NCBI RefSeq assembly: GCF_047555085.1
Contig: NZ_CP180230.1
Coordinates: 180,001-212,000 of the forward strand
Direction: 5' to 3'
DNA: 32,000 nucleotides
Source of the DNA: Candidatus Saccharimonadota bacterium
Lineage (GTDB): Archaea > Nanohalarchaeota > Nanosalinia > Nanosalinales > Nanosalinaceae
In this document: piece after piece, positions 1 through 32,000 of the stretch
Layout: each line of letters starts with the position of its first letter
Position numbering within the stretch: position 1 is the first letter of the stretch
Translations under genes and position numbers: made by a program
The notes under the pieces: model-generated
The model's database searches: none
Told to the model about the DNA's origin: nothing
What the model saw: the letters and a program-made list of their open reading frames with translations, nothing else

Positions 1-407
1 TAGAATTGAAAGGTTTCGCAGATCTTGTTGACAGGGCGAGGCCTGACAAGGTTTTCATGGATCTTCCGGAGCCGAACGCAGAAAGATTTATCGGAAAAGT
101 CAAGGATCTTATGAATTACACCGGTGATATCGCCTTTGTTGCAGAGCACGGCGCAGATGATACTTTCCCTGTTGTTTCAGCGGCCTCTATAGCTGCTAAA
201 AGCGCAAGAGAAAGCCACGTCGATGAACTGAAGAAGAAGTACGGCTACGACTTCAAGTCCGGTTATCCGCACGATGAGCCGACGATCAACTTCCTGAAGA
301 ATCATATCGATGAGTACGGAGAGCTTCCAGAGGAGACAAGACTTTCATGGAGCACCGCTGAACGTATCTTGAAGGAAAGTCAGCAGAACTCTCTCGGAGA
401 TTTCTAG
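1..407 (+). CDS. rnhB: Ribonuclease HII, C-terminal ~134 codons (5' end lies outside the window)
   Basis: ORF is open to the window edge (codon phase from nt 3). DDTFPVVSAASIAAKSAR and KSGYPHD match conserved RNase HII motifs. Confidence 0.8.
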   Translation, partial: ELKGFADLVDRARPDKVFMDLPEPNAERFIGKVKDLMNYTGDIAFVAEHGADDTFPVVSAASIAAKSARESHVDELKKKYGYDFKSGYPHDEPTINFLKNHIDEYGELPEETRLSWSTAERILKESQQNSLGDF

Positions 408-452
408 AGATAAATTATAACTTGAAAAAGATAGAGGCCTGTTTCTATTTCT

Positions 453-989
453 ATGCCATCAGGAAGTTTCACAGGCTCACGTGTAGTGGTGAGAGACGAT
501 GAACACGCAGAGGAAGTACATGATGAACACTACTACGGGAAGTACAACGACGATGTACTGGAGCTTTCGATGGTAGAGGCCTATCACCTGATAGACAGGG
601 ATCTTATAGAAGTCGAGAACGATGGTGAGAAGCTTTCAAAGGATGAGGCCTTCGAGCTTTTCACTTCAAAAGATGAAGAATTCTATCACAAGTATCAGGC
701 CTACAGTGATCTACGGGAGAGAGGTTTTATCGTCAAGACAGGTTTCAAGTTTGGAGCGCATTTCCGTGTGTATCCGAGAGGTGTCAATCCGTATCAGGAA
801 GGCCCTAAGAAGCAGAAGCAGCATACTAAATGGGTTGTCCATGCTGTCCCGGAGAACGATACTTTGAGTTTTCAGGAGATGAGCCGTGCGGTACGCCTGG
901 CGAATAATATCCGTGCTACGATGTTGTGGGCGGTAGTAGATAACGAGTCAGGTGTAACTTACTACGAAGTCGATAGACTGACTCCATAG
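453..989 (+). CDS. endA: tRNA-splicing (intron) endonuclease, short homotetramer-size form
   Basis: 178 aa. YSDLRERGFIVKTGFKFGAHFRVY and HTKWVVHAV match the catalytic C-terminal domain of archaeal EndA. A T-tract follows the stop (994-999). Confidence 0.85.
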   Translation: MPSGSFTGSRVVVRDDEHAEEVHDEHYYGKYNDDVLELSMVEAYHLIDRDLIEVENDGEKLSKDEAFELFTSKDEEFYHKYQAYSDLRERGFIVKTGFKFGAHFRVYPRGVNPYQEGPKKQKQHTKWVVHAVPENDTLSFQEMSRAVRLANNIRATMLWAVVDNESGVTYYEVDRLTP

Positions 990-998
990 AAAATTTTT

Positions 999-1931
999 TC
1001 AGGCCTGGAAGAGATCGATTCTTGACGTTCTGCTGACGTTTTTCCGCATACGTTTTCCTATGATCAGGCCTATGATGAGGCCTGCGAGGTGTGCGGAGCT
1101 GGCGAATCCGCCGATCACAGGCAGTGTTGTTCCCATAAGTTTGGATGTCAGGTTCAGTACCTCGATTGCTCCGAAGGCTTTCACAGCTGTCTGAATTTTC
1201 ATAGGGATAACAAAGTACAGCAGTACTTCTGCCTGTGGATAAAGCATTGCTACTGCGCCTACTGCAGCAACTACTGCTCCTGAGGCTCCGACAGCTGGTG
1301 TCATTGTTCCTATGCCTGATGAGAATGCTGCGCCGTGCAGTAAACTGTAAATATTGCTCATCAGGACGTAGGCAAGGCTTGAGATAAGGCCTGTACCGAT
1401 GTAGAACTTCAGCATCTCTTTGCTTCCTATAGCTTTCTCCAGTATGCTTCCGAAAAAGTAAAACGTTATCATGTTGGCCATCAGGTGGAAAAGGCCTGCG
1501 TGAAGAATCATAACGGTCAGCAGACTCCATGGATGGGTAACAAGATACCCGACGGCAGGATTCAGTACAAGATTGTTGAAGTAACCGGGGACTATGAACT
1601 GCAGCATGAAAGAGAAAGATGTCAGTGCTATGATCGATAAAGTGTAATTATTTTTTAGCGTGGAAAGAATATCGTTTCCAAGGCCTGTACTTCTGCGATT
1701 CCTGTGAACTTCCTTTTTCACGTCCTGAGACTCGAATTTTTCATCGAACCATTTCTCATCAGAGGCCTCTTCTTTTTCCTCTCCCTTGTTCAGGTACTCC
1801 TCTTTCTTCCCTGAGTCAAGGCCTTCACAGTCGTGATTCTCCGGTAGACGGTGCTCCGAACAGAACTTTTCCCCGCAGTAATGGCAGGTAAAGCTCATAG
1901 TCTGCTTGCCGCATTCGGAGCACTCGGCCAT
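999..1931 (-). CDS. Rhomboid-family intramembrane serine protease with N-terminal AN1-type zinc finger
   Basis: The N-terminus CSECGK..CHYCGEKFCSEHRLPENHDC has the Cys/His spacing of an AN1 zinc finger. It is followed by multiple TM helices with HAGLFHLMANM (His) and GASGAV (GxSG Ser) rhomboid motifs. Confidence 0.8.
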   Translation of the reverse strand: MAECSECGKQTMSFTCHYCGEKFCSEHRLPENHDCEGLDSGKKEEYLNKGEEKEEASDEKWFDEKFESQDVKKEVHRNRRSTGLGNDILSTLKNNYTLSIIALTSFSFMLQFIVPGYFNNLVLNPAVGYLVTHPWSLLTVMILHAGLFHLMANMITFYFFGSILEKAIGSKEMLKFYIGTGLISSLAYVLMSNIYSLLHGAAFSSGIGTMTPAVGASGAVVAAVGAVAMLYPQAEVLLYFVIPMKIQTAVKAFGAIEVLNLTSKLMGTTLPVIGGFASSAHLAGLIIGLIIGKRMRKNVSRTSRIDLFQA

Positions 1932-1950
1932 ACAGAAGAACTACTCACGT

Positions 1951-1961
1951 ATCTTTTTATC
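1951..1961 (-). promoter_or_regulatory. TATA-like box for the rhomboid gene
   Basis: The minus strand reads GATAAAAAGAT, centred about 25 nt upstream of ATG 1931. Confidence 0.4.
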
Positions 1962-2220
1962 AATCTTCATACATCAGATCTCCAGTTATTCCCGACATAT
2001 CTCCGTCGAAACTTTCATGCCACATCTCCGCATATCCCTCCGGATCAAAGAACTGGCTCCGGCTATCATAAGTCTCGGAATAGGCCTGTGCGTACTCCGC
2101 AGCATCCTCCATGCTCGGGAAAAGATGCTCAACAGATCTTGCGATACTCATAACATCTTCATCGTACCGCATGTCAACAAGGCCTTGCTCTATACTTTCT
2201 ATCTCATCCTGGATAGACAT
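1960..2220 (-). CDS. Hypothetical small acidic protein (86 aa)
   Basis: Only ORF filling this gap. Composition (D/E-rich) matches the neighbouring proteome, and an AT-rich TATA-like block lies about 30 nt upstream. No family recognised. Confidence 0.45.
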   Translation of the reverse strand: MSIQDEIESIEQGLVDMRYDEDVMSIARSVEHLFPSMEDAAEYAQAYSETYDSRSQFFDPEGYAEMWHESFDGDMSGITGDLMYED

Positions 2221-2265
2221 AAAGAAAAATTTAGGCAGGCCTAAATTAAAAAGTAAAAGGTGTGA

Positions 2266-3987
2266 TCAGGCCAGATAACTGGCCAGATCCTCTACATTGA
2301 CTCTTTCCTGTTCCGTCGAGTCACGATCCCGTACTGTAACTTTCCCATCGTCTTCCAGAGTCTCGTAATCTATAGTGACACAGAAAGGTGTTCCGACTTC
2401 GTCCTGCCTCCTGTAACGTTTTCCGATGTTTCCGGTATCGTCGTACTTGACAGCGAAGCCCTCACTTCTCAGTTTGTCCGCTACGTCACGTGCTTTCTCG
2501 CCGAGGCCTTCCTTGTCCATCAACGGGAAGACAGCGACTTCAGTAGGAGCTGCTTTCTCGCTCAATCGCAGGACGGTCCTCTCTTCGTCGTCTACTTCGT
2601 CTTCATCGTACGCATGGACAAGCAAAGTGTAGACTGTCCTGTCGACACCGAATGAAGGCTCTGCGACGTGAGGAACTACGTGTTCTCCTGTCTCAGTAAC
2701 TTCCTCAACTTTGAAGTTGCATTTCTCGACGGGAACGGAGTACGTCTCATCCTCGATCTCAACGAAGATCTTGTCGGCCTCAAAGGCCTCTGGCTCCTCC
2801 TCGGCGATTCTTTCCAGTTCCTGTTTTATTTCGCCTGCTTTATCGCCGAACTCCGGGCCGAGGAATCCCATGTCTGGATTGACAGTATTTTTCTCAACTG
2901 TCTTCGGCTCATCGTACTCCTTGAAGATCTGGAAGTCTTTCTCGTCTCCGGAGTGATCCCTGTGTTTCGTCAAGTCGTAGCATCCTCTGTAGGCGAATCC
3001 TGCGATCTCAAGCCAGTCCTCTTCACTTGATCCGACATCGGACTCTGCGTCCCAGCAATCAGTCGCGTAGTGAGCTCTTTCTCCTTCCTGGTGCTGTCTG
3101 AAGCGGAAACGATCCATGTCAACTCCGATCCTCTCGTACCATTTCTTGGCGATACCGAGATAGTAAGCCACCCAGTCAACTTCTACAATATTCTCCTCAA
3201 CGGCCTCTTCAACAGTCGCATAGATATATTCTCCGTCGTCTTTCTCCTGCTCGCTGACAGGATAAAGCTTCAACTCCACATCCTTCACTCTATCCAGATT
3301 CGGCTCATTTTCTTCAGGATCCACAAAGTGCTCAAGCTCGGCCTGAGTGAATTCACGAGTCCTGACAAGGCCTTTACGTGGACTTATCTCGTTCCTGTAC
3401 GCTTTTCCGATCTGAGTGATTCCGAAAGGTAACTGGCCTCTCATGTAATCCTTCAATCTTGGGAACTCGACGAATATTCCCTGAGCTGTTTCAGGCCTCA
3501 AGTATCCTGTCTGTCCTGAGCCAGGGCCTATACTTGTTTCGAACATCAAGTTGAAGTCCTCGACTTCCACATCTGAAAGATTCTCGCCACAGCTAGGACA
3601 GATAAGATCATGCTCCTTGATCAAGGCCTCTATCTGATCAGTATCGAATCCTTCCGCCTCCTCGATATCAGTGTTGCCCTCTACAAGATGATCAGCTCGC
3701 GTAGAAGTTCCACACTCCGGGCATTCAATTATCATGTCGTCGAAGCCGTCCAAGTGTCCTGAGGCCTCAAATACAGGCTCCGGCATAACTGTCGGGGCCT
3801 CTATCTCTCTGTGTCCCAGCGCCCGTGAAAATGTTTCTCTCCAGCTATTTTCGATTTTTCTCTTCAACTCGGCGCCTTCAGGTCCGTAAGTCTGGAAGCC
3901 GGAAACGCCGCCGTAGGCCTCACTGCTCTGGAAGAAAAATCCTCTTCTCTTCGACAGTTCGGCAACTTTCTCACTTAAATTCTTCAT
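2266..3987 (-). CDS. glyS: Glycyl-tRNA synthetase, archaeal/eukaryotic-type alpha2
   Basis: 573 aa. The N-terminus KRRGFFFQSSEAYGG.SGF..YGP.G and class II motifs (RPETAQG, FRNEISPR..L.R.REF.Q.E.E.F) are typical of archaeal GlyRS. Confidence 0.95.
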   Translation of the reverse strand: MKNLSEKVAELSKRRGFFFQSSEAYGGVSGFQTYGPEGAELKRKIENSWRETFSRALGHREIEAPTVMPEPVFEASGHLDGFDDMIIECPECGTSTRADHLVEGNTDIEEAEGFDTDQIEALIKEHDLICPSCGENLSDVEVEDFNLMFETSIGPGSGQTGYLRPETAQGIFVEFPRLKDYMRGQLPFGITQIGKAYRNEISPRKGLVRTREFTQAELEHFVDPEENEPNLDRVKDVELKLYPVSEQEKDDGEYIYATVEEAVEENIVEVDWVAYYLGIAKKWYERIGVDMDRFRFRQHQEGERAHYATDCWDAESDVGSSEEDWLEIAGFAYRGCYDLTKHRDHSGDEKDFQIFKEYDEPKTVEKNTVNPDMGFLGPEFGDKAGEIKQELERIAEEEPEAFEADKIFVEIEDETYSVPVEKCNFKVEEVTETGEHVVPHVAEPSFGVDRTVYTLLVHAYDEDEVDDEERTVLRLSEKAAPTEVAVFPLMDKEGLGEKARDVADKLRSEGFAVKYDDTGNIGKRYRRQDEVGTPFCVTIDYETLEDDGKVTVRDRDSTEQERVNVEDLASYLA

Positions 3988-4007
3988 AGAGAAACACCGT
4001 CACTGGA

Positions 4008-4018
4008 AATTTTTATAG
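4008..4018 (-). promoter_or_regulatory. TATA-like box for glyS (leaderless geometry)
   Basis: The minus strand reads CTATAAAAATTT, centred about 26 nt upstream of the glyS ATG (3987). Confidence 0.5.
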
Positions 4019-4045
4019 CAGAAACTCTAGAAGGTTTTAAAATCC

Positions 4046-4062
4046 GAAACTCACAGAGTTTC
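4046..4062. repeat. Perfect palindrome GAAACTC-ACA-GAGTTTC
   Basis: 7-bp arms with a 3-nt spacer, verified by reverse-complementing. It is the second of three roughly 25-26 nt units that each start with GAAACT (4021, 4046, 4072). Confidence 0.7.
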
Positions 4063-4071
4063 TGGTTGTAA

Positions 4072-4090
4072 GAAACTTCACAGAAGTTTC
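4072..4090. repeat. Perfect palindrome GAAACTTC-ACA-GAAGTTTC
   Basis: 8-bp arms with the same ACA spacer, 26 nt after the previous palindrome. A third hairpin, GAAGCA-TTCAT-TGCTTC, follows at 4095-4111. Confidence 0.7.
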
Positions 4091-4101
4091 GGGCGAAGCA
4101 T

Positions 4102-4173
4102 TCATTGCTTCTGTTTGACACAGGCTCGTGTTCGAACCTGCGTAAATCCAAAACGTCCACCCTTGGTTGACAT
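4102..4173 (-). other. Candidate micro-ORF a (23 aa): MSTKGGRFGFTQVRTRACVKQKQ
   Basis: The ATG is preceded by AGGAG with a 6-nt spacing, and a TATA-like box lies further upstream. GGT-GGA-CGT is read in frame as GGR. Three hairpins follow. No coding statistics are possible at this length. Confidence 0.25.
4153..4161 (-). repeat. GGTGGACGT core motif copy (extended GGGTGGACGTTTTGGA, 4147-4162)
   Basis: The plus strand reads TCCAAAACGTCCACCC. It lies in the glyS-pgk spacer and is oriented toward glyS. Confidence 0.8.
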
Positions 4174-4204
4174 AAAAAACTCCTCTAAAGGCCTCTTCGC
4201 CTCG

Positions 4205-4217: not shown

Positions 4218-4284
4218 CTGTCCTCTGGAACTCAAAGAGTTAAAAACGACCACAGGTAATACATCGTAATATAGTGGTGCCGGG

Positions 4285-9128: not shown

Positions 9129-10523
9129 GTGAAACTTTCGAAACAGGCCCTGGAAATTCTCGAGCAGTTAAAACAGAAAAACGGAGAATCAACTGTAACA
9201 GAACTTGAAAAAGAAGGATTCGACCAGTCGATGGTGAACAGGGCCTCTCTGGAGCTTGAACAGGAAGGCCTCGCAGAAGTAGATGAGGAAACAGATGAAT
9301 ACTACGTTCTCACGGATACAGGTAAAGAGGTAGAGGAGAAAGGTTCACCGGAGTACAGGCTTGTCGAAAGAGTAAGATCCGGTGATACACATATGTCAGA
9401 TCTCCAGGATCTGGATCTCGATGTAGCGCTTGGAAAGGCCCGTGAACGCTCGTGGATCAAGATAGATTCAGGGGAAGTCGAACTTGTCGAAGACGTCGAA
9501 CAAGATCCTGTCAGAGAGAAACTTGAGGAGAAAGATTTCACCGATGAACATCTGGATAGAGGCCTCGTCGAGATCAGAGAGTCAACAGTCAGGAAGATCA
9601 GGCTTACAGAAAAAGGAGAAGACGTCGAGACAGAGAAAATCGAGGAAGATTTCAACGTTGAAGCGGAAGTTGAGACACCGCGAATAGGTAAAAAACACTT
9701 CTACAAGGAAATCCTCGACTTCGCACAGGAAAAATTCGTGGAAATGGGCTTCCAGGAAATGACAGGAGACTTCATAGTACCAAGCTTCCTCAACTTCGAC
9801 GCACTCTACACCGCACAGGACCACCCGGCCAGAGACCTCCACGACACATTCTTCATGAAGACACCTGAGAAAACAGACCTTTCGGAGTACGGAGAAAAAG
9901 TACAGCACGTCAAAGAAACACACGAAGACGGCTGGACTACAGGATCCAAGGGCTGGGGCTACGACTGGAGCGAACAAGAGGCCTCAAGAAATGTACTCAG
10001 AACACATACCACTGCAGTCAGCGCAAGAAGACTGCACGAAATCGATATTAACGAAGAAGAACTGCCTAAAAAATTCTTCATCATAGGTAGAAACTTCAGA
10101 AACGAAACAGTAGACAGAACACACCTTCCAGGATTCATACAGCTGGACGGGATCGTGGTAGGCAAGAACCTGAACTACAGAAACCTCAAAGGATACCTCA
10201 GCGAATTCTTCGAAAAAATGGGATACGAAGAGTTCCGATTAATCCCTTCATACTATCCTTACACAGAAATGAGCACAGAAGTACAGGTATACGACGAGGA
10301 AGACGAAGAATGGCTAGGAATGGGAGGCGCAGGCCTCTTCAGACCGGAAGTAGTCAAGCCAATGCTAGGATTCGAAGCAACAGTACTTGCATGGGGACTA
10401 GGCCTCGGAAGAGTAGCAATGAAAGCAGCAGAAATCGAAGACATCAGAGAACTTTACAGAAACGACATAGAAATACTTGAGGAAACTCCAAAATGGAGGC
10501 CTCACAACGGAGGAGAACAATAA
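9129..10523 (+). CDS. pheS: Phenylalanyl-tRNA synthetase alpha subunit (start reassigned to GTG 9129)
   Basis: Class II core motifs (HPARD, FRNE..D.THL..F.Q.DG, GAGL.RPEV). The track start at 9021 overlaps the upstream gene. GTG 9129 lies 27 nt after TATAAAATA (9098-9106), consistent with a leaderless transcript. Confidence 0.9.
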   Translation: MKLSKQALEILEQLKQKNGESTVTELEKEGFDQSMVNRASLELEQEGLAEVDEETDEYYVLTDTGKEVEEKGSPEYRLVERVRSGDTHMSDLQDLDLDVALGKARERSWIKIDSGEVELVEDVEQDPVREKLEEKDFTDEHLDRGLVEIRESTVRKIRLTEKGEDVETEKIEEDFNVEAEVETPRIGKKHFYKEILDFAQEKFVEMGFQEMTGDFIVPSFLNFDALYTAQDHPARDLHDTFFMKTPEKTDLSEYGEKVQHVKETHEDGWTTGSKGWGYDWSEQEASRNVLRTHTTAVSARRLHEIDINEEELPKKFFIIGRNFRNETVDRTHLPGFIQLDGIVVGKNLNYRNLKGYLSEFFEKMGYEEFRLIPSYYPYTEMSTEVQVYDEEDEEWLGMGGAGLFRPEVVKPMLGFEATVLAWGLGLGRVAMKAAEIEDIRELYRNDIEILEETPKWRPHNGGEQ

Positions 10524-12170
10524 ATGGCCAACTTGGAGATAGATAAAAGAGAATTCGACGAACTTGTAGGAGAAAGCATCGACAACCAGAAAATGATAGA
10601 AGAAGGCTCAATGCTGGGAGCACACTGGCACCGCATCGAAGGAAACGTATGCGAAGTAGAAACATACCCGAACAGGCCAGACCTCCTATCAGTAGAGGGC
10701 CTCGCAAGAGCATACCGAGGATTCTTCGACATAAAAACAGGAAGAGAAGAATACAACGTAAAGAAAGGAGACCTAAAAGTAGAAGTCGATGACTCGGTGG
10801 AAAATGTAAGGCCTCACATCGGAGGAGCAGTAGTCAGAGGCCTAGAGCTTTCAAAAAAGAAGATTAACGGCCTGATCCAGCTACAGGAAAAAATGCACGA
10901 AACAATGGGCCGCAGAAGAGACAAGCTGGCGATAGGCCTTCACGACCTTTCCACAGTAGAAGCACCGTTCACATACAAAGCTGTAGAACCAGAAAAAGTC
11001 TCATTCAAACCGCTGGAATACGATAAACACATGCAGCTCGGAGAAATCCTGGATGAACACGAAAAAGGCCAGAAATACGCATGGATACTGGAATACGAGG
11101 ACAGATACCCTATAATCGAAGACTCAGAAGGAAAAGTACTCAGCTTCCCACCTATCATCAACAACCAGCTAACGGAAGTAGACTCCGAAACAACCGATAT
11201 CTTCATCGATGTCACAGGAAAACACAGAGAAACAGTAATGAAGGCCCTCAACATCCTCACAACAGCACTATCAGAAAGAGGAGGCCAGATAGAATCAGTA
11301 ACAGTCGACGGAGAAAAAATGCCAGACCTAACACCGGAAGAAATGGCGCTGGATATCGAATACTTCAAAGACATCTCGGGCCTCGATCTAGAAACAGAAG
11401 AAATCGTCAAAAGACTGGAAATGATGAAGCACGAGGCCAAAAAGAAAGGAGACAAGATCAAAGTCAAGATTCCGGCCTACAGAAACGACATAATCCACCA
11501 GTACGACCTGATCGAAGAAGTTGTGATCGCACACAGATACGACAACATCGAACCGGAAGTTCCTGACGTCGACCAAATGGCCTCAGTGAAACCGCTACAA
11601 GACTTCACAGACAGAATAAGAGATGTAATGACTGGAGCTGGCGCCCTCGAAGCAAATACATTCTACCTCTCCAGCAAGGAAAAAATCTTCGAAATGATGG
11701 AGATAGAGGAAAATGAAGTAGCAGAAGTAGCCAACGCATCAGGTGAGGAACAGGAAGTAGTCAGAAACTGGCTTCTCCCATCGCTGTTCCAGACACTTCA
11801 CGACAACCGACATCACAGCTACCCACAGACATTCTTCGAAGTATCGGATGTGGTAGAACTTGAAAACTCAAATGTCGGCGCTTCCAACCAGAAAAAACTG
11901 GCATACATCACAATAGGAAACGAAAAAGACTACACCGATGCAAGAGCAATTCTACAGGTACTTGAAAGAGATCTAGGCCTCGAATTCGATATACAGGAAA
12001 AGTACCGGAGCTGCTTCAAGGAATCAAGATCCGCAGCAGTCTACTTCAAAGACAAGAGAGTAGGAATCATAGGAGAGTTCTCGGAACAAGTCATTGAAAA
12101 CTGGGAGCTTAGCTATCCTGTTTCTGGATTGGAATTGGATGTAGAGAAAGTGCTTGAACTGAAAGAGTAA
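10524..12170 (+). CDS. pheT: Phenylalanyl-tRNA synthetase beta subunit
   Basis: 548 aa. The ATG directly abuts the pheS stop, with GGAGGAG (10509-10515) 8 nt upstream. Archaeal PheT B3/4 and B5 domain-like sequence (ETYPNRPDLLS, RRDKLAIGLHD). Confidence 0.92.
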   Translation: MANLEIDKREFDELVGESIDNQKMIEEGSMLGAHWHRIEGNVCEVETYPNRPDLLSVEGLARAYRGFFDIKTGREEYNVKKGDLKVEVDDSVENVRPHIGGAVVRGLELSKKKINGLIQLQEKMHETMGRRRDKLAIGLHDLSTVEAPFTYKAVEPEKVSFKPLEYDKHMQLGEILDEHEKGQKYAWILEYEDRYPIIEDSEGKVLSFPPIINNQLTEVDSETTDIFIDVTGKHRETVMKALNILTTALSERGGQIESVTVDGEKMPDLTPEEMALDIEYFKDISGLDLETEEIVKRLEMMKHEAKKKGDKIKVKIPAYRNDIIHQYDLIEEVVIAHRYDNIEPEVPDVDQMASVKPLQDFTDRIRDVMTGAGALEANTFYLSSKEKIFEMMEIEENEVAEVANASGEEQEVVRNWLLPSLFQTLHDNRHHSYPQTFFEVSDVVELENSNVGASNQKKLAYITIGNEKDYTDARAILQVLERDLGLEFDIQEKYRSCFKESRSAAVYFKDKRVGIIGEFSEQVIENWELSYPVSGLELDVEKVLELKE

Positions 12171-12991: not shown

Positions 12992-13450
12992 CTATTTTGA
13001 AGCGTTGAGATGTCTGAAAGTGGTCTTGTCGCACTCCAGAAGCTCCACGTTCTCGTTTTCAAGCCATTCGCTGCCTGTCATGTTGTCGTAAGAGGCCTCG
13101 GATGTCCAGTCCATACCTGTAACTTCTTCTGATTCACAGATATTGTAGGCCTGAAGCATAAGCTCTGATTCGACAAGCCTGTAGTAGTTTTCTGTACCTG
13201 GCTCAGGATCAGTATAGTTATCGTAATTGTACGTGGTGTGGTCTCTCATCTGGAGGCCTATACATGTTCCCGCCTCGATTCCGAAGCAGTTTGTCTCGAT
13301 CTCTGTCAGTCCGACGTTCATCGGCTCATCCGGTGTAGTGAAATTATTTACTCCGACAAAAACTAGTACTACTGCAAGTGAGATAGCTACGAAGAAGAGA
13401 TCTCTTTCGAGGCCTTCCTCAAATCTTTCCGGCAGGCTTGGCAACTCCAT
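12992..13450 (-). CDS. Small membrane-anchored, Cys-containing extracytoplasmic protein (paralog of 26946-27341)
   Basis: One N-terminal TM helix (LFFVAISLAVVLVFVGV), then an acidic domain with 4 Cys. Shares the C.GI....CIGLQ block with the ORF at 26946-27341. A TATA-like GATTTAAGAAG lies about 24 nt upstream. Confidence 0.55.
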   Translation of the reverse strand: MELPSLPERFEEGLERDLFFVAISLAVVLVFVGVNNFTTPDEPMNVGLTEIETNCFGIEAGTCIGLQMRDHTTYNYDNYTDPEPGTENYYRLVESELMLQAYNICESEEVTGMDWTSEASYDNMTGSEWLENENVELLECDKTTFRHLNASK

Positions 13451-13565
13451 ACATTTGACTCAAGTTGTTCAGCTTCTTAAATCCCCCTGTCCACAGGCCT
13501 CTCGATTTTTTGATTTCTACTCGAGAATCAATTACAAAAAGGCTCCGTCGTCAACTATTAGACAG

Positions 13566-15434
13566 ATGCAACTAGGAACTATTGAGGGAAAAGTAAATAC
13601 TGACAGTTTCAAGTTCAGAGCAACTGAAGAAGTAGGAAAATTCGATTTCGTATCTGTAAAAAGTAATGAAAAATGGATTCTGGCACAGGTGGATGAAGTC
13701 ACCAAGAAATCCGGTGGCGAGACCATCGCCGATGCCAACATCATCGGTTACAGAGACAAAGGTATGACTCGTGCTCCCCGCCAGGTTATCGAGCCGGACT
13801 CAATAGTTTACTCTGCAGATCAGGACCTGATCTCTGAGACTTTAGGCCTCAACGATGACGGTCTGAGAGTAGGTAATCTCGAGACAAATCCTGATATAGA
13901 TATTTTTGTTAATCCAGAGGATTTCTACAAGCACTTTGCAGTTCTGGCCCAGACAGGTGCTGGTAAATCTTATCTTACAGGTGTGTTAATGGAGGAAATG
14001 CTTGAACAGGACTTTCCTATACTGATAATCGATCCTCACGGAGAGTTTTCTTCCCTGGGAACTCCTAATCCGGATAATGAAGAAGAGCCGAAGGGATACA
14101 ACGTCAAGGAGTACTCTCCGAACACGGATATCAACAAGTCGGCACTTCCGCTCGAATTTTCCTCGCTTAACTTCGAGAAAAAAGAGTTACAGACACTGAT
14201 ACCGGATTCATTAACTAACTCCCAGATGGGAGTTCTCTACAACGCCCTGAAACGCCTCAGAGACAAAGACGAGGACTATTCTCTGATCGATATTGAGGAT
14301 GCTGTACAGCAGGAAGACTCCACTGCGAAATGGAATCTGCTGAACTATCTGGAGCAGCTTGAGGAATCAGGCCTTTTCTCAGATAATCCTATCGATACTG
14401 AGGAACTGGTGGAGAAAGGCCGAGCAACTATAATCAACTTGAAGGCCGTAGAGCCGGATACAGCAGAGATGGCGGTGTACCTACTGGCGAAAAAACTTTT
14501 CGACCTGAGGAAGAAGGACAAAGTCCCGCCGTTCATGATGGTGTTCGAGGAGGCCCACAACTTCATCCCGGAGAAAGGATTCGGACAGGCTATCTCAAAT
14601 CCTATCATGAGAAAGATTGCATCTGAGGGAAGAAAGTTCGGCCTCGGTATCGGAGTGATCTCTCAGAGGCCTGCACGTATAGATAAGAACGTTCTTTCAC
14701 AGTGCAACACACAGTTTATTCTGAAGGTGACGAATCCTAACGATCTTAAGGCGATCTCAAAATCTTTCGAGGGAATTACTTCCGGTGTTGAAGGTATGAT
14801 AAAGTCGCTTCCGCCGGGTGTCTGTTTCGTTCTCGGGAATCAGTATCCTGTCATGACTGATGTCCGGCAGAGAAAATCCAAGCACGGTGGAGAGACTCAG
14901 ACAGCTGATACATACGAGGAGAAAGAGAGTATCCGTGTATTTGAGACGCGTAAAAGGATTTCCGAGGTAGAGAACATGTACGGTGAAAAATTCGATACCA
15001 CGTACTATCCGCTCTATCTTGTGGAAAACGATGAGAAAAGAGTTCTTGTCGATGGGATAGAGAATAAAGTCAAGGCCAAGAGGAGCAAGCCGAGCTCTGA
15101 AGAGAAGGATATCATGCACAAGATAAGACAGGGAGTAGGAAAAAGCGATATGGTGGAGGAATTAGGCCTCTCAATCGCAAAATTGAGCTCCAAGATCGAT
15201 AACTTGAGAGACAAGAATCTGGTCAAAGACGGAGAACTCGAGGTACGTGAATCAATACTTGATCTGGAGATAAAGGAAGAAGACGTCGTAAAGGAAGATC
15301 TGATGGATTACCAGGTCGATGAGGAAAAGGCCTCGAAGAGGTTGAAAAAATCAGAGATAAGCAAAGTTTACTATCCGTACTACTCTTCAGACAACGTTGT
15401 TTACGATCCTATACTTGAAGAGGAAATCGGATGA
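13566..15434 (+). CDS. HerA-like (DUF87/FtsK-HerA superfamily) ATPase with C-terminal extension containing a winged-helix-like module
   Basis: N-terminal HAS-barrel-like segment, Walker A GAGKSYLTG, DPHGEF and Walker B FMMVFEEAHNF. Start moved to ATG 13566 because the upstream part of the track ORF overlaps the divergent gene and is Ser-rich. Confidence 0.8.
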   Translation: MQLGTIEGKVNTDSFKFRATEEVGKFDFVSVKSNEKWILAQVDEVTKKSGGETIADANIIGYRDKGMTRAPRQVIEPDSIVYSADQDLISETLGLNDDGLRVGNLETNPDIDIFVNPEDFYKHFAVLAQTGAGKSYLTGVLMEEMLEQDFPILIIDPHGEFSSLGTPNPDNEEEPKGYNVKEYSPNTDINKSALPLEFSSLNFEKKELQTLIPDSLTNSQMGVLYNALKRLRDKDEDYSLIDIEDAVQQEDSTAKWNLLNYLEQLEESGLFSDNPIDTEELVEKGRATIINLKAVEPDTAEMAVYLLAKKLFDLRKKDKVPPFMMVFEEAHNFIPEKGFGQAISNPIMRKIASEGRKFGLGIGVISQRPARIDKNVLSQCNTQFILKVTNPNDLKAISKSFEGITSGVEGMIKSLPPGVCFVLGNQYPVMTDVRQRKSKHGGETQTADTYEEKESIRVFETRKRISEVENMYGEKFDTTYYPLYLVENDEKRVLVDGIENKVKAKRSKPSSEEKDIMHKIRQGVGKSDMVEELGLSIAKLSSKIDNLRDKNLVKDGELEVRESILDLEIKEEDVVKEDLMDYQVDEEKASKRLKKSEISKVYYPYYSSDNVVYDPILEEEIG

Positions 15435-15478: not shown

Positions 15479-15552
15479 GGGTTCGTGGTCTAGTTGGTTA
15501 TGACGTCGCCCTTACAAGGCGAAGATCCCCAGTTCGAATCTGGGCGAACCCA
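15479..15552 (+). tRNA. tRNA-Val (anticodon UAC), no intron, CCA not encoded
   Basis: Hand-folded cloverleaf. The 7-bp acceptor stem is GGGTTCG/CGAACCC. The anticodon stem is TCGCC/GGCGA with loop CTTACAA. The T arm is CCCAG-TTCGAAT-CTGGG, with a 5-nt variable loop and discriminator A. A TATA-like box lies about 30 nt upstream and TTTT lies downstream. Confidence 0.95.
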
Positions 15553-15752
15553 TCTCCGGTTTTGAAGTCCTCATTTCCTGGAGGAAAAATATCTGCCTCT
15601 TAAACGCTATCAAGATAGAATAAGGTGATCAGAGGCCTTGAAAAAATCTACAGGCCTGAACATTTGTTGTCATCAATACGTATTAAAGGATTAAGTGTCG
15701 AATAGTTTGACTGTACGTCAAGAGGTTTGAAGATGTACGAGGTCTCGATTAA

Positions 15753-22535: not shown

Positions 22536-25067
22536 CTATCGTTCACTGCTGATCGAGTAATACTTCTCACCGTCCTCTTCACGGACCTCAATCTTTCCCT
22601 CCTTCGCAAGCCATCCAAGACCTCTGTTCAGGGCCTCGTGATCAAGATCGCCTGTAAAGTTCAGTAATTTGTTCGCCTGAGCCTCTCCTTTCTCACGCAA
22701 AGCATCGTATATCTCCCCTGCGGAACCACCGATCTCTGCATTCACATCCACTTCGACCTCTACACTGTCTTCCGTAGAGGCCTCTTCGGCATCGGCAACT
22801 TTCAGTATTGTCTCAAGAGCTACATCAGGGCTGACAGAGATCGCATCAATCCCTTCCTCAACAAGGAACTCTGCGTAGTCTTCATGTGTTGAAGGGGCAT
22901 CGCCGCATATACCAACGTGTGCATCGTTTCTGTGTGCTCTGCGGATTAACTTGCTGACAGAATCCTTGACTGCTGGATCCCTCTCATCGAACAGCTTCTT
23001 CAACTTGTCGCTGTTCCTGTCCACCCCCAGAGTTAACTGTGTGAGATCGTTTGTTCCAACTGAGAAACCATCAAAGTACTCAGCAAACTCTCCTGCACGG
23101 ATAATATTTGAAGGAATCTCAGCCATCACAAATACCTCAATATCTCCGTTATCAAGTCCATACTCTTTCATCTTAGCCCTTACATTCTTCGCCTCCTCTA
23201 CAGTACGACAGAACGGAACCATGACGGTGATATTATCAAGGCCAAGATCGTCAACACATTTCCTCAAGGCCTTACACTCTAGCTCAAAGGCCTTGGAAAA
23301 TTCTTCATCGTAGTAACGGGAAGCTCCTCTGAATCCGATCATAGGATTAGCCTCATCCGGTTCGTAATCCTCGCCGCCCTCCAGCTCTGCGTACTCATCC
23401 GACTTGAAATCGCTTAGGCGTACAACGACTTGATCGGGATAGAAGGCTGCTCCAATCTTTCCAAGGCCCGACTTCAATGCCTCTACGAACTCTTCTCCGC
23501 GATCCTCCTCTATAAGCTTCAAGGGATGCTCGCCGACATGAGAGGAAATTATGAACTCTTCTCTTGCAAGGCCTACTCCATCAACAGGCAACTGCGCAAG
23601 GTGGAAGGCCTCGCTTGGCTCTCCAATATTCACCTGTACATCGGTATCAGTCTCCGGAATCTCCTCGAGGTGGTGTTCCTCAACGTTGAACTCCAGTTCC
23701 CCGTCCCATATCTTTCCTGTACTGGATGAGCAGTCAACTGTAACTTTATCGCCGTCTGAGATAACTGATGTTGCATTCTCCGTTCCGATCACGGCAGGTA
23801 CTCCAAGCTCCCTTGAGACGATCGCAGCGTGACTTGTACGGCCTCCTTTGTTCGTTATTATCGCTCCGGCCTTCTTCATGATCGGCTCCCAGTCAGGATC
23901 AGTCATATCCGTGACAAGAACTTCTCCTTCCTCGAACTGATCGATCTCCTTCGGCGACGAGAGAACATGTGCTGTACCTGAGCCAATCTTCGATCCGATA
24001 GCGCTTCCCTCAAGAATCACCTCGGACTCCTCCTCAAGTTTGTGGTCTTCAATTACGTTTTCATCTTTCTCCGACTGTACTGTCTCAGGCCTTGCCTGTA
24101 CAATGTAAAGCTTCTTGGTCTGTCCGTCCAGCACCCATTCGATATCCATAGGCTTTCCGTAGTGCTCCTCGATTCTCACAGCGTACTTTGCCAGTTCTTT
24201 TACCTGATTATCTGTAATACAGAACTGATCCCGCTCCTCCTGAGGAACTTTGACTTTCCTGTTCTCCTCATTATCTCCCTCTTCATGATTCTCGTTCCTT
24301 ACAAGCTTCTTCTCCTTGTCACCAAGCTTCTTTTCGATTATACCAAGATTATTCTTGAAAACAGTGAACTCATCGGGATTAACCTCTCCAAGTACAACGT
24401 ACTCACCCAATCCATACGAAGCGTTGATCGTCACCACTCCATCGAAACCGGAATCAGGATCCATACTGAACATGACTCCAGAGGCCCCGATATCGGAGCG
24501 TCCCATCTTCTGCACTACAGCAGAAAGCTTCACATCGAAATGAGAGAAACCTTTATCCTCCCTGTAACTTATCGCACGATTCGTGAAAAGCGAGGCAAAA
24601 CAGTCCTTGATACGCTTGATAAGATCCTGCTCACCTGAAACATTCAGATAAGTCTCCTGCTGCCCAGCAAAAGAAGCACCGGGAAGATCCTCAGCAGTAG
24701 CCGATGAACGCACAGCAACCATTGGATCATCGACACCTATCTCATCTTCAAGAGTTCTGTAGGCCTCTACAAAATCCTCACGCAGTTCCTGCGGCATATC
24801 TGCCTCTTTGATATGTGCGCGGATCTGTTCTCCACGCCTCTGCAGATCGTGAACATCATCTGTATCCAGGCCGTCAAGAAGTCTCTCGATCTTATCCTTC
24901 AATCCTGTCTCACGGATAAATGTGTCATAGGCCTCTGAAGTAGTGGCATAGCCTGGCAGAACAGGCACCTCTGTCTCGTTCCTTAATTCTCCAAGATTTG
25001 CGCCTTTTCCGCCGACTTTCGATGTATAATCGGCCGTGATTTCTCCGAATCCCAGGACGTTCTTCAT
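22536..25067 (-). CDS. ppsA: Phosphoenolpyruvate synthase (water dikinase) with an ~80-aa C-terminal winged-helix-like extension
   Basis: Full-length match to PpsA: ATP-grasp N-terminus VGGKGANLGEL, phosphohistidine segment GGRTSHAAIVSRELG.PAV.G and a PEP-utilising TIM barrel (GTNDLTQ). An extra tail contains LGWLAKEGKI. Confidence 0.95.
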   Translation of the reverse strand: MKNVLGFGEITADYTSKVGGKGANLGELRNETEVPVLPGYATTSEAYDTFIRETGLKDKIERLLDGLDTDDVHDLQRRGEQIRAHIKEADMPQELREDFVEAYRTLEDEIGVDDPMVAVRSSATAEDLPGASFAGQQETYLNVSGEQDLIKRIKDCFASLFTNRAISYREDKGFSHFDVKLSAVVQKMGRSDIGASGVMFSMDPDSGFDGVVTINASYGLGEYVVLGEVNPDEFTVFKNNLGIIEKKLGDKEKKLVRNENHEEGDNEENRKVKVPQEERDQFCITDNQVKELAKYAVRIEEHYGKPMDIEWVLDGQTKKLYIVQARPETVQSEKDENVIEDHKLEEESEVILEGSAIGSKIGSGTAHVLSSPKEIDQFEEGEVLVTDMTDPDWEPIMKKAGAIITNKGGRTSHAAIVSRELGVPAVIGTENATSVISDGDKVTVDCSSSTGKIWDGELEFNVEEHHLEEIPETDTDVQVNIGEPSEAFHLAQLPVDGVGLAREEFIISSHVGEHPLKLIEEDRGEEFVEALKSGLGKIGAAFYPDQVVVRLSDFKSDEYAELEGGEDYEPDEANPMIGFRGASRYYDEEFSKAFELECKALRKCVDDLGLDNITVMVPFCRTVEEAKNVRAKMKEYGLDNGDIEVFVMAEIPSNIIRAGEFAEYFDGFSVGTNDLTQLTLGVDRNSDKLKKLFDERDPAVKDSVSKLIRRAHRNDAHVGICGDAPSTHEDYAEFLVEEGIDAISVSPDVALETILKVADAEEASTEDSVEVEVDVNAEIGGSAGEIYDALREKGEAQANKLLNFTGDLDHEALNRGLGWLAKEGKIEVREEDGEKYYSISSER

Positions 25068-26843: not shown

Positions 26844-26864
26844 ACAACAAAACCGATGTTCAAA

Positions 26865-26876: not shown

Positions 26877-26945
26877 ACCCGCGAACCTGTCGATTTCAGG
26901 ATAGGATACAAACATTAATACGCAGGCCTCCAGAAAAACTACGTG

Positions 26946-27341: not shown

Positions 27342-27342
27342 T

Positions 27343-28449: not shown

Positions 28450-28502
28450 GTACAGAAATTCTGACTCCAGTTTTTTATTCTAAATTCCCGGAGGCCTGAA
28501 AA

Positions 28503-29678: not shown

Positions 29679-29742
29679 ACGGAAAAATTTGAACTTGTAG
29701 AATAAAAAGAAAAAATTTGATAAAAAAGAAGAGATGGAGGCC

Positions 29743-31665
29743 TCAGCCCAGGAACTCTGGCTCCAGGCTCTTGTCCTCAACCTCCTGTCTCAAGGCCTCT
29801 CTGAACTCTTCCAGATCTACGTCACCTTCTTCACGCTCTTCTCTATCTCTGACGGAAATGTTCCCGGCCTCTTCCTCGTCATCTCCAAGAATAAGCATGT
29901 ATGGCACGTTGTCGTCGTGAGCGGCCTGAATCTTCTTCCCGACGGTCCAGGAACGATCCTCGATCTCCACTCTGAACTTTGAAAGTTCTTTCTGGATCTT
30001 TTCAGCATAGGCCTTGTTGTCATCCGTTACAGGAAGGATACGCACCTGTTCCGGTGCAAGCCATGTCGGGAAGTCTCCTGCAAAGTGTTCGATCATGACT
30101 CCCATGAAACGTTCGATAGATCCGAGGATCGCACGATGGATCATGACGGGGTAATGGTCCTCGTTGTCCTCTCCGACGTACTTCAGTCCGTAGTTACGCG
30201 GGATGACGAAATCGAGCTGGACTGTACCCAGCTGCCATTCTCTTCCGATCGCATCTTCCACCTCGACACCGATCTTAGGCCCGTAGAACGCTCCTTCTTC
30301 CTCGTTAATCACATAGTCATCTACTTTCTCATCTAACGCGTTCTTCAGGGAGCTTTCTGCTTCTTCCCATAATTCATCCGGTCCCTGAGCCTTCTCAGGC
30401 TTTGTCTCGAGTATAAAGTTGACATTAAATCCGAACTCATCGTACATCTCGATAATGATCTGGAGATGCTTCTTGATCTCCTCCTCGATCTGATCCTTAC
30501 GGATATAGGCGTGGCCATCGTCTTGGGTCATACCTCTAACGCGTAAAAGGCCTGAAAGCTCTCCACTCTGTTCATTCCTGTAAACTGTCCCGAACTCGGA
30601 AAGCTTGATAGGCAGCTCTTTGTAACTCCTTTTACCGGAGTCAAATATATGCGAATGGTTCGCACAGTTCATAGGCTTGAGGCCGTACTCTTCATCGTTT
30701 TGCTCCCAGGCAAACATCTCGCCTTCCTCCTTGAAGGCCTCGTAGTGCCCCGTTTTCTTCCATAGCTCTGCTTTATTCAGTTCTGGTGTCCAGACTTCCT
30801 CGTAGCCGAGTTCTTTATTCTTCTGGCGGATGTATTCCTCGAGCTCTCTTCTCATCTTCATCCCATCTCTGTGGAAATGTGCGGCACCTGGCGAGAAATC
30901 AGGGATCGAGAACAGTTCCATCTCCTGTCCGATCCTCCTGTGATCACGCTTTTCAGCCTCTCTGCGCTTCTCCATGAAATCTTCGAGATCTGCCTCGGAG
31001 GAGAAAGCTGTTCCATAAACTCTTGTAAGCATCTCGTTCTCCTCATCGCCTCTCCAGTAGGCGCCAGCGATCTCCAGAAGCTTGAAGGCCTCAACTTCCC
31101 CCGTAGATTCTACGTGAGGGCCTTTACATAAGTCCTTGAACTCTCCCTGCTTGTAAAAGGAAACTTTGTCTCCTTCAGAGGCCTCTTCATCCAGGATCTC
31201 TCGTTTATACTCGTTGTCCTCGAAGAAATCTTCAGCCTCTTCTCGTGGGACTAGTTCACGTTCTATCGGAAGATCTTCTTCGATTATATTCTGCATCTCT
31301 TCCTCGATTTCTTCGAAATCCTCCTGATCCAGATCGACTCCGTCGATATCGTAGTAGAATCCTTCATCAGTCCAAGGTCCGATCGTAAGCTTTACTTCGT
31401 CGCCGTAGATCCTCTTCAAGGCCTGTGCGAATACGTGTGCGGCGCTGTGGCGCAGGACTTCGATGTATTCTTCGCTCTGATCTGTTACTATGTGGACGGT
31501 ATCTCCGTCTGAGACATGTTCCTCTTTGGCTACGAGTTCGCCGTTGATCTTTCCGGCTACTGTATCGTCTCCAAGGCCTGTTCCTATCTCGTAGGCCACA
31601 TCTTCTACTGTCGAGTTTTCTTCTACTTCTAAACTGGAGCCATCTGGTAGTTCTACTTCAATCAT
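29743..31665 (-). CDS. thrS: Threonyl-tRNA synthetase (TGS, editing, class II core and anticodon-binding domains)
   Basis: 640 aa. N-terminal TGS domain, editing-domain HSAAHV motif, class II motifs (FRNE.SG.L.GL.RVR, GAFYGPKI) and a C-terminal anticodon-binding domain. Confidence 0.95.
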   Translation of the reverse strand: MIEVELPDGSSLEVEENSTVEDVAYEIGTGLGDDTVAGKINGELVAKEEHVSDGDTVHIVTDQSEEYIEVLRHSAAHVFAQALKRIYGDEVKLTIGPWTDEGFYYDIDGVDLDQEDFEEIEEEMQNIIEEDLPIERELVPREEAEDFFEDNEYKREILDEEASEGDKVSFYKQGEFKDLCKGPHVESTGEVEAFKLLEIAGAYWRGDEENEMLTRVYGTAFSSEADLEDFMEKRREAEKRDHRRIGQEMELFSIPDFSPGAAHFHRDGMKMRRELEEYIRQKNKELGYEEVWTPELNKAELWKKTGHYEAFKEEGEMFAWEQNDEEYGLKPMNCANHSHIFDSGKRSYKELPIKLSEFGTVYRNEQSGELSGLLRVRGMTQDDGHAYIRKDQIEEEIKKHLQIIIEMYDEFGFNVNFILETKPEKAQGPDELWEEAESSLKNALDEKVDDYVINEEEGAFYGPKIGVEVEDAIGREWQLGTVQLDFVIPRNYGLKYVGEDNEDHYPVMIHRAILGSIERFMGVMIEHFAGDFPTWLAPEQVRILPVTDDNKAYAEKIQKELSKFRVEIEDRSWTVGKKIQAAHDDNVPYMLILGDDEEEAGNISVRDREEREEGDVDLEEFREALRQEVEDKSLEPEFLG

Positions 31666-31719
31666 GAGAGATCTCCTGCAAAGTTTCTAATTTGATAGAA
31701 AAGATTTTGACAGCTAAAG

Positions 31720-31776
31720 TTAAAGCTGGCTTGGTTGCGAGACATGCGGTCGTGGAGTAGGACGTCCACCTTTCAT
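31720..31776 (-). other. Candidate micro-ORF d (18 aa): MKGGRPTPRPHVSQPSQL
   Basis: It lies upstream of thrS in the same orientation, 54 nt from stop to the thrS ATG. GGT-GGA-CGT is read in frame as GGR. Confidence 0.2.
31762..31770 (-). repeat. GGTGGACGT core motif copy
   Basis: The plus strand reads ACGTCCACC. It lies in the thrS-aTrm56 spacer and is oriented toward thrS. Confidence 0.8.
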
Positions 31777-31802
31777 TGCATCAAAAGTTGAGGCCTCTGC
31801 TC

Positions 31803-31816
31803 TTAATAATTTATGC
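31803..31816. promoter_or_regulatory. Shared AT-rich TATA-like block between aTrm56 (+) and the thrS-upstream micro-ORF (-)
   Basis: TTAATAATTTATGC lies about 22-25 nt upstream of ATG 31832 (+) and about 34 nt upstream of ATG 31776 (-). Confidence 0.35.
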
Positions 31817-31831
31817 CAGTAAAATCCATGT

Positions 31832-32000
31832 ATGATCAAAGTTCTCCGCCTCGGACACAGAAGAGGCCGCGACGACAGAATATCCACTCACGTAGGCCTC
31901 ACAGCACGCCAATGGGGAGCTGATGAAATAATCTACTCCGGAGAAAAAGACACTAACATACTGGAAAGCCAGAGAGACATCATCGATCGCTGGGGCGGCG
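31832..32000 (+). CDS. tRNA (cytidine56-2'-O)-methyltransferase aTrm56, N-terminal 56 codons (3' end outside the window)
   Basis: My translation [40 protein letters not shown]...RWGG matches the conserved aTrm56 N-terminus ([18 protein letters not shown]). The ORF is open to the window end. Confidence 0.75.

Follow-up and report, generated by a model that had tools for sequence, protein, structure and literature searches.

AGGCCT, a lineage-specific highly iterated palindrome in nanohaloarchaea

The highly iterated palindromes (HIPs) of cyanobacteria, namely HIP1 (GCGATCGC) and the alternative words GGCGCC, GCsGC and rCCGGy (Elhai 2015, PMC4390886; Xu et al. 2018, PMC5861425), are the closest known system to the one described here, the hexamer AGGCCT in 32,000 nucleotides of a nanohaloarchaeal genome (contig NZ_CP180230.1 of assembly GCF_047555085.1, positions 180,001 to 212,000; hereafter the window). 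Both are short perfect palindromes over-represented 15-300-fold, which occur in all reading frames and in spacers without codon usage as an explanation, respond to a pressure on abundance and distribution rather than on single sites, and differ as words among related genomes. In both, the one-off variants altered at central positions deviate least from expectation (for HIP1, PMC4390886). However, AGGCCT is not HIP1 proper: it is another word of only 6 bp, it is carried by a DPANN archaeon instead of a cyanobacterium, and its density reaches 2,800-4,200 per Mb compared with the 300-2,700 per Mb reported for HIP1. It is also found in ectosymbionts with reduced genomes, whereas HIP1 tends to disappear from cyanobacteria that live as symbionts (PMC4390886). 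[quoted passage not shown]

AGGCCT occurs 133 times in the window (4.2 per kb, mean spacing 241 nt) and is the commonest of all 4,096 hexamers. The original prediction, made by eye from the letters, had counted about 130 sites at one per 240 nt, and its estimate of some 6 expected copies and a 20-fold excess is borne out by an order-0 expectation of 6.7 (19.9-fold). Markov models of orders 1 and 2 expect 7.4 and 26.5 copies, dinucleotide-preserving shuffles (n=100) give a mean of 7.07 (s.d. 2.4, maximum 13; 0 of 100 reach 133), and the full site stands at 18-fold under a dinucleotide model and at 26-fold under a masked dinucleotide model. These values of 18-26-fold compare with the 3-fold below which the claim was to be given up. 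Enrichment of many unrelated palindromes, which would have pointed to a compositional artefact, is not seen, as the runner-up among the 64 hexamer palindromes, AACGTT, reaches only 2.7-fold. As had been noticed, more than half of all GGCC tetramers are part of AGGCCT (133 of 238, 56%); the one-flank variants are indeed low in number, with 9-18 copies each rather than the 8-15 first reported. The maximal-order Markov comparison that had been recommended expects 127 copies at order 4 (O/E 1.05). Since 133 of the 172 AGGCC pentamers and 133 of the 176 GGCCT pentamers sit within AGGCCT, the hexamer dominates its own pentamers, and this nested-word artefact makes the ratio uninformative on enrichment; the test asks only about flank correlation given the GGCC core and refutes nothing. 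The coupling between the A and T flanks is weak, with an odds ratio of 1.8 in the window and of 2.7 in the pooled AGGCCT-rich genomes introduced below, pooled statistics over related genomes being partly pseudo-replicated.

The two flanks contribute in a graded, almost additive way (P(A|GGCC)=0.72, P(T|GGCC)=0.74 in the window). Against the masked dinucleotide background, GGCC with neither correct flank stands at 1.1-fold, with one correct flank at 3.5-4-fold and with both at the full 26-fold, whereas all three classes are at about 1-fold in AGGCCT-poor relatives. When the one-off variants are normalized to these poor relatives, a gradient from the outside in appears, with rich/poor ratios of 6.3 for GGGCCT/AGGCCC, 2.3 for CGGCCT/AGGCCG and 1.5 for TGGCCT/AGGCCA, 1.3 for AAGCCT/AGGCTT, 0.7-1.1 for the other second- and third-position variants and 0.5 for AGACCT/AGGTCT. 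The outer positions thus span 1.5-6.3 and the central ones, which deviate least, 0.5-1.1; AGGTCT/AGACCT is the sole one-off variant that is clearly depleted (40 observed, 72 expected). Outside the six bases the information content is at most 0.12 bit per position, which shows that AGGCCT is not the core of a longer repeat.

The pressure on AGGCCT acts at the DNA level, independent of reading frame, as had been proposed in place of a dipeptide preference. There are 106 sites lying fully in called genes, on both strands, one overlapping a stop codon and 26 outside called genes. All three codon phases are used, as claimed, with 17 Arg-Pro, 42 [E/K/Q]-Ala-x and 47 x-Gly-Leu sites, each enriched 6-7-fold. 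Synonymous shuffles (n=1,000), in which codons were permuted within each gene so that the protein and the codon usage of the gene were kept, yield 17.6±3.6 coding sites (maximum 30) compared with the 106 observed (z≈25), and hence do not reproduce the count as a by-product of codon and amino-acid usage would demand. This null is conservative, because the codon usage that it preserves is already inflated by the sites. If an opportunity is defined as a peptide context able to encode AGGCCT by synonymous choice, 106 of the 144 in the window (74%) are realized, comprising 17 of 19 Arg-Pro, 42 of 57 [E/K/Q]-Ala-[F/L/S/Y/C/W] and 47 of 68 x-Gly-Leu contexts. The density is higher outside called genes than inside (7.2 versus 3.7 per kb), and 13 short spacers (10-100 bp; 604 bp in total; 34% GC) hold seven sites, or 11.6 per kb, with exactly one in seven of them and two in none. 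In the spacers of the window the sites keep no fixed distance to start or stop codons, which rules out AGGCCT as a promoter or terminator element. The copies said to abut stop codons do so: site 1001 overlaps the stop codon of a minus-strand rhomboid gene and site 29738 ends on that of the ThrRS gene. The odds for AGGCCT over its synonymous alternatives are about 38 (0.74/0.26 in rich lineages versus 0.07/0.93 in the sister lineage), and the enrichment in spacers is larger still.

The sites are also spaced more evenly than chance. The coefficient of variation (CV) of inter-site distances is 0.73, compared with 0.99 for random placement (p=0.0004), and 0.735 compared with 0.877 when realized and unrealized labels are permuted among the coding opportunities (p=0.002). 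Unrealized opportunities in the window lie nearer another site than realized ones do (geometric means of 65 and 115 nt; permutation p=0.0045), indicating that an AGGCCT lowers the chance of a second one nearby, a pattern of diminishing returns. The direction is the same in three rich relatives, L081, L083 and L085 (p=0.24, 0.09 and 0.04). Close pairs are few, and the longest gap (1,041 nt) is not shorter than random placement gives (p=0.15).

About 20 nanohaloarchaeal loci around ppsA were compared, with at most about 20 kb per relative and all from one chromosomal neighbourhood; the genome-wide extent of the excess is an extrapolation from the window and these loci. PpsA and the neighbouring genes group with Nanohaloarchaea (DPANN), tiny archaea of salt lakes, the best PpsA match being 93% identical; the archaeal setting that the original prediction had guessed is thus right. 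Among the relatives the trait is bimodal. Rich loci (2.8-4.2 sites per kb, O/E 14-20) are the window, L081, L083/L084 (GCA_022729355.1), L085/L086/L091/L098, L093, L003 and L094. Poor loci (at most 0.5 per kb, O/E 0.2-1.8) are L089 (Candidatus Nanosalina sp., with the gene order of the window), L087 (Candidatus Nanohalococcus occultus), L092, L088, L090, L097, L095, L001, L002, L004 and L005, and two loci are intermediate (L006, O/E 5.2; L096, O/E 2.3). The seven rich lineages realize 58-84% of their synonymous opportunities and all the non-rich ones 2-17%, including the intermediate L006 (16%) and L096 (10%). At identical orthologous codon columns, AGGCCT is used in 27 of 38 cases in the window, 36 of 44 in L083 and 23 of 37 in L085, compared with 2 of 29 in the syntenic sister L089. 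At conserved Arg-Pro, Ser-Gly-Leu and Glu-Ala-Tyr positions L089 has CGACCG, CGGTCT, AAGCTT and the like where the rich genomes all have AGGCCT. Likewise, several columns of ppsA, the gene used for the cross-lineage comparison, show AGGCCT in all rich lineages and assorted synonymous codons in the poor ones.

On a neighbour-joining tree of PpsA (100 bootstraps) the rich lineages fall at three separate places: a group A that includes the window (100/100 bootstraps), sister to the poor L089 and L092; L093 with L003, sister to L096 and L006; and L094, sister to the poor L088. Monophyly of all rich lineages is recovered in 0 of 100 bootstraps, and the placement of group A next to L089 is backed by synteny. 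In a control scan of about 170 loci for palindromes at least 6-fold enriched with at least 12 copies, only CGATCG, GGATCC and GAGCTC were flagged besides AGGCCT; the HIP1 core CGATCG reaches 6-21-fold in cyanobacterial loci, and AGGCCT 14-20-fold in nanohaloarchaeal ones. The two other words are themselves HIP-like, GAGCTC (64 observed, 10 expected) in L034, a metagenome-assembled genome of Desulfurobacteriaceae, and GGATCC (41 observed, 5.9 expected) in L043, a Thermostichus sp., where the word agrees with the HIP variant known from the Synechococcus OS-type lineage.

The pressure also leaves a trace in proteins. Peptides compatible with AGGCCT number 13-17 per 1,000 codons in rich genomes and 8-9.6 in poor ones, about 1.7 times more in the former, and the window has 148 where about 91 are expected (Poisson p=2e-8). 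Opportunities private to a lineage, in which the peptide itself has changed, are mostly realized (7 of 11, 11 of 12 and 14 of 16 in the window counts), which indicates that the pressure fixes amino-acid changes too, although it is weaker there than at synonymous positions and in spacers. L006, L096 and L088, which are sisters of rich lineages, have 12-16 opportunities per 1,000 codons but realize 10-16% of them; they may be 'ghosts' that have lost the pressure, the protein footprint outlasting the synonymous one, a suggestion that the small numbers keep at that level.

Positional conservation in relatives, which the original prediction proposed to look for, is not what keeps the sites. Those of the window are shared with L081 and L083 at 63-67% and with L085 at 43%, compared with 19-26% for generic hexamers. 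Yet observed co-realization matches the expectation under independence in each of six comparisons (23 and 22.1, 31 and 27.5, 22 and 19.0, 22 and 21.7, 18 and 17.1, 25 and 23.5), so that independent saturation of common opportunities accounts for the shared sites, and the pressure acts on density, not on position. Of 70 four-way aligned columns with AGGCCT, 12 show the word in every genome and 31 in a single one. Single copies come and go, but their density holds at an equilibrium of 3-4 per kb. New sites arise from hexamers two to four mismatches away, also through transversions, flank changes and amino-acid changes. Among the copies lost or gained in four rich genomes transitions dominate at all positions, and the mutation spectrum is therefore not diagnostic of 5-methylcytosine deamination.

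The palindromic word, the graded weights, the diminishing returns and the on/off distribution together point to a sequence-specific DNA protein that acts as a dimer and whose gene comes and goes. The pressure would come from such a protein, probably a homodimer, with a gene that spreads and disappears horizontally. Its likeliest identity would be an AGGCCT-specific (StuI-type) DNA methyltransferase, either orphan or within a restriction-modification (R-M) system, and some process that requires AGGCCT about once in every few hundred bases would read the methyl mark. Candidates for this process are the preferential uptake or recombination of conspecific DNA and the discrimination of strands or of self during repair. 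The sites would build up by selection or by a molecular drive of the uptake/recombination type until balanced by mutation and coding constraint. We tentatively prefer this account, in which an acquired methyltransferase and a reader in uptake, recombination or repair are both inferred, and regard it as quite possible, if short of probable. It is favoured by analogy, because methyltransferases that match the alternative HIPs of cyanobacteria occur together with them (PMC4390886), natural transformation rises with methylated HIP1, up to >100-fold (bioRxiv 10.1101/2024.09.10.611283), and enzymes that recognize and methylate AGGCCT exist (PMC12128166). Among the causes listed originally, a methylation target, an architectural protein and an uptake or self tag are each compatible with the data, whereas very-short-patch (VSP)-like repair as sole cause is argued against.

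A more specific version holds AGGCCT to be a methylated 'self' tag that, among nanohaloarchaeal ectosymbionts, promotes the uptake of conspecific DNA, its homologous recombination or both, with a horizontally mobile methyltransferase plus reader and with L006, L096 and L088 as decaying ghost lineages. Uptake or recombination of conspecific DNA is the current leading idea for methylated HIP1, the abundance of which correlates with several Type IV secretion system proteins that the authors read as DNA-uptake machinery (bioRxiv 10.64898/2026.06.24.733823). For AGGCCT we consider this version conceivable but doubtful. If it is true, a determinant would, once acquired, rewrite thousands of synonymous, intergenic and even amino-acid-changing positions, and Archaea would have in AGGCCT their first described highly iterated palindrome or signal of the uptake type. 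In the literature, of which coverage was incomplete, neither AGGCCT in Nanohaloarchaea nor any HIP-type element in Archaea was found described, and the word is mentioned together with nanohaloarchaea in no paper apart from an unrelated Alcanivorax study.

A target of an R-M system need not be abundant. The genome of Alcanivorax borkumensis is about 3.1 Mb in size. Strain SK2 of this species has the StuI-type system AboORF2079P with the same 6-bp word, an instance of dimeric enzymes that read and methylate precisely AGGCCT, and carries 1,674 copies genome-wide (PMC12128166), a calculated 0.5 per kb or so, which unlike the density in the window is no hyper-abundance. The targets of restriction are as a rule neutral or avoided, and AGGCCT, being enriched, does not behave as a Type II target does; other palindromes of the window show the usual avoidance. 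CAATTG, GTGCAC and GGGCCC are absent (8.1, 3.7 and 2.9 expected), as are CCGCGG, GCCGGC, CGCGCG and GCGCGC, TCGCGA, TTATAA and GCTAGC occur once each (8.0, 5.3 and 5.5 expected) and the tetramer CTAG stands at 0.29-fold. Such avoidance, the usual footprint of restriction systems, coexists with the single hyper-abundant AGGCCT. Separately, GTAC is 2.5-fold over-represented in the window (140 versus 56), TGTACA, CGTACG and AGTACT score 1.8-2.4-fold, and GTATAC recurs among the top palindromes (2-4-fold) in AGGCCT-rich and AGGCCT-poor nanohaloarchaea alike; this GTAC-type bias is clade-wide and weaker than that of AGGCCT.

Several observations weigh against the methyltransferase account. A genome with a HIP would be expected to encode a cognate DNA methyltransferase, usually an orphan. 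The recommended search for methyltransferase, restriction and Vsr/Mig-type repair genes with Pfam, NCBIfam and PADLOC found none, either in the window or in the flanks of rich relatives (about 150 kb), and no uptake receptor turned up in these general scans, in which no receptor was examined specifically. The only reported nanohaloarchaeal methylome is that of Candidatus Nanohalococcus occultus, with the motif GDGCHC (PMC10266531), and this is the AGGCCT-poor lineage L087. A strict Type II enzyme is expected to act in an all-or-none manner, which does not fit the enrichment of one-flank variants. Equilibrium frequencies alone do not separate selection from biased conversion, the PpsA tree is that of a single gene, and the anti-clustering is significant in the window and L085, but not in L081 or L083 taken singly.

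What the scans of window open reading frames (ORFs) and of unknown flank ORFs returned was a TIGR01177 tRNA methyltransferase and a HerA-like ATPase, and a regular-expression scan of 11 rich or intermediate loci for the motifs of C5 and N4/N6 methyltransferases gave no match. The ATPase gene (13227-15434, +) has a sub-threshold match to the DNA-translocating ATPase CedD (E=2e-23) and a C-terminal winged-helix-like tail, and is followed by a conserved 150-residue ORF without family; both are also present in the AGGCCT-poor L089. The motif GDGCHC occurs once in 22.5 kb of L087 (CP104395.1, 1-22517), where 41 are expected, and is mildly low in the window (24 versus 55); its avoidance is extreme only in L087, and a link to AGGCCT is rejected. 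A scan of viral contigs with a three-site AGGCCT pattern found no AGGCCT-rich virus. The dense matches (L231, L273, L248, L235 and L196) are tandem repeats, and L211 is an ordinary tailed-phage fragment with a terminase. L231 (IMGVR_UViG_2595698529_000001, a 291-kb contig) contains a 73-nt tandem array whose unit carries AGGCCTAGGCCT, together with about 150 copies of the telomere-type repeat TTAGGG; its appearance is that of eukaryotic or giant-virus DNA, and it has nothing to do with the signal of nanohaloarchaea.

Uptake sequences without methylation come next. The uptake signal sequences (USS) of Pasteurellaceae and the DNA uptake sequences (DUS) of Neisseriaceae show, like AGGCCT, a genome-wide excess in both orientations, at a density of about one site per kb or above, and accumulation of uptake sequences is explicable by molecular drive. 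Pressure on density, even spacing, graded near-matches, spacer enrichment and amino-acid shifts are all described properties of USS and DUS, in which all reading frames are tolerated with effects on the peptides. AGGCCT shares them: its sites avoid each other, its near-matches are enriched in a graded way, and it is commoner in spacers and shifts amino acids. It could be a word whose bearing fragments an uptake or recombination protein prefers, so that alleles with AGGCCT supplant those lacking it and the word spreads by molecular drive alone. However, known uptake sequences are 9-12 nt long and non-palindromic, often lie as inverted pairs in terminators and have a known competence receptor, whereas AGGCCT is a 6-bp palindrome without flank information, and a 6-mer discriminates poorly against foreign DNA. 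HIP1 itself is now proposed as an uptake sequence (bioRxiv 10.64898/2026.06.24.733823), but its effect on transformation depended on methylation (bioRxiv 10.1101/2024.09.10.611283), and we judge this explanation of AGGCCT unlikely.

To a similar degree it seems improbable that AGGCCT is a binding array for an abundant architectural, chromatin or segregation protein, in which selection, without any methylation, would keep roughly even sites for a dimeric nucleoid protein. The palindrome, the graded and nearly additive flanks and the mutual avoidance of sites all suit such a protein, and a chromosome-structure role has been proposed for HIP1 (PMC5861425), which shows a periodicity of 10-90 kb along the chromosome (PMC5861425). 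Against it, gains or losses among close relatives, at three places of the tree, are improbable for a core component of chromatin. Moreover, the window encodes no candidate protein specific to rich lineages, its helix-turn-helix and double-stranded DNA-binding genes being shared with the poor L089.

VSP-type repair alone is the least likely of the mechanistic alternatives. In Vsr/Dcm of Escherichia coli and M.MthTI/Mig.MthI of Methanothermobacter (GGCC), a context-specific correction of T:G to C:G biases oligonucleotides toward the methylated word; known effects of this kind on word frequencies are modest. The pairing of GGCC methylation with a T:G glycosylase in M.MthTI/Mig.MthI provides an archaeal precedent. 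A Vsr- or Mig-like enzyme acting with cytosine methylation would convert T:G in AGGTCT/AGACCT to AGGCCT as a functionless mutational drive, and this pair is the one clearly depleted here, about 2-fold, as VSP systems would predict; a Type II methyltransferase paired with vsr has also been noted in an archaeal survey (PMC10609329). The footprint is mixed, however, AGGTCT/AGACCT standing at 0.5 but AAGCCT/AGGCTT at 1.3. A rough flux estimate from the variant counts shows that a half-depleted precursor pool would account for at most about 3-4-fold, not 26-fold. The drive moreover affects all six positions, fixes the A and T flanks and transversions, and makes sites from two to four mismatches away with amino-acid changes included, and a context-free bias does not predict sites that avoid each other. 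As sole cause, VSP-type T:G repair is therefore disfavoured and quite unlikely.

Although AGG, CCT, GCC and GGC are fairly common codons in the window and the maximal-order O/E is 1.05, a by-product of base composition, codon usage or dipeptide preference is refuted by the codon-preserving shuffles, by the spacers, where enrichment is highest, and by L089, which encodes the same proteins and realizes 2 of 29, the O/E being the nested-word artefact described above; we give it next to no credence. A dispersed repeat or miniature mobile element of the repetitive extragenic palindrome or miniature inverted-repeat (REP/MITE) type would suit the high copy number and the frequency in spacers, but is refuted by the absence of flank conservation, and most sites (80% inside genes) lie in frame within conserved housekeeping genes, leaving it a negligible chance.

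AGGCCT is a second, independent instance of the HIP phenomenon, in a different domain of life. HIP1 has stayed unexplained for three decades, partly because it is near-universal in cyanobacteria and few contrasts between genomes with and without it are at hand. The genomes in which AGGCCT occurs in this way are about 1 Mb in size, as also given in the cited literature. With closely related rich and poor nanohaloarchaea, some of them syntenic, gene-content profiling of public metagenome-assembled genomes could single out the gene behind the trait. The nanohaloarchaea likewise illustrate how far a pressure at the DNA level can remodel a reduced symbiont genome, with about three quarters of the opportunities taken and about 1.7 times the compatible peptides. 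In practice, binning and the assignment of viruses or plasmids to rich lineages gain a sharp marker in the density of AGGCCT, and the excess confounds analyses of codon usage and of dN/dS in these lineages.

The window has 28 called genes that cover 89% of it, all of them housekeeping. They include RNase HII, a tRNA-intron endonuclease, aminoacyl-tRNA synthetases (Thr, Phe α/β and others), PGK, NDK, the HerA-like ATPase, PTH2, TruD, glycosyltransferases, PpsA, eIF6 and S19e. Representative sites are given in Table 1. All 25 example coordinates of the original prediction are real sites read correctly, but eight were off by 1-10 nt; the corrected positions are 9979 (given as 9989), 9560 (9569), 26425 (26435), 15633 and 15652 (15636 and 15655), 9266 (9267), 17330 (17331) and 28492 (28493).

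Table 1. Coordinates of representative AGGCCT sites and intervals in the window.
Feature	Position	Strand	Description
Phase 0 example	39..44	+	AGG-CCT = Arg-Pro, RNase HII gene fragment
Phase 1 example	577..582	+	G-AGGCCT-AT = Glu-Ala-Tyr, tRNA-intron endonuclease gene
Phase 2 example	10331..10336	+	GC-AGGCCT-C = Ala-Gly-Leu, PheRS alpha
ppsA site	24929..24934	-	One of eight AGGCCT sites within ppsA (22536-25067, -)
Spacer site	435..440		Lone AGGCCT in a 48-bp intergenic spacer
Spacer site	26924..26929		Lone AGGCCT in a divergent spacer of 27 bp, flanked by the S19e gene and a 132-aa ORF
Close pair	15633..15657		Two AGGCCT at a distance of 19 nt, with tRNA-Val upstream and the PTH2 gene downstream
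Longest site-free stretch	10940..11974		1,041 nt between site starts, inside PheRS beta

The sole tRNA gene of the window, tRNA-Val(TAC) (15479-15552, +), is itself free of AGGCCT and has two sites within about 100 nt downstream. At its C terminus the nanohaloarchaeal PpsA has a DUF2582 winged-helix domain (residues 777-836), and two of its homologues, P0075 and P0094, of about 1,250 residues, contain LAGLIDADG/intein domains. Finally, the ORF of an MFS transporter, called mechanically from a TTG start, would have 38 nt (29743-29780) in common with the end of the ThrRS gene, which lies on the same strand, and the true start of the transporter gene is probably further downstream.

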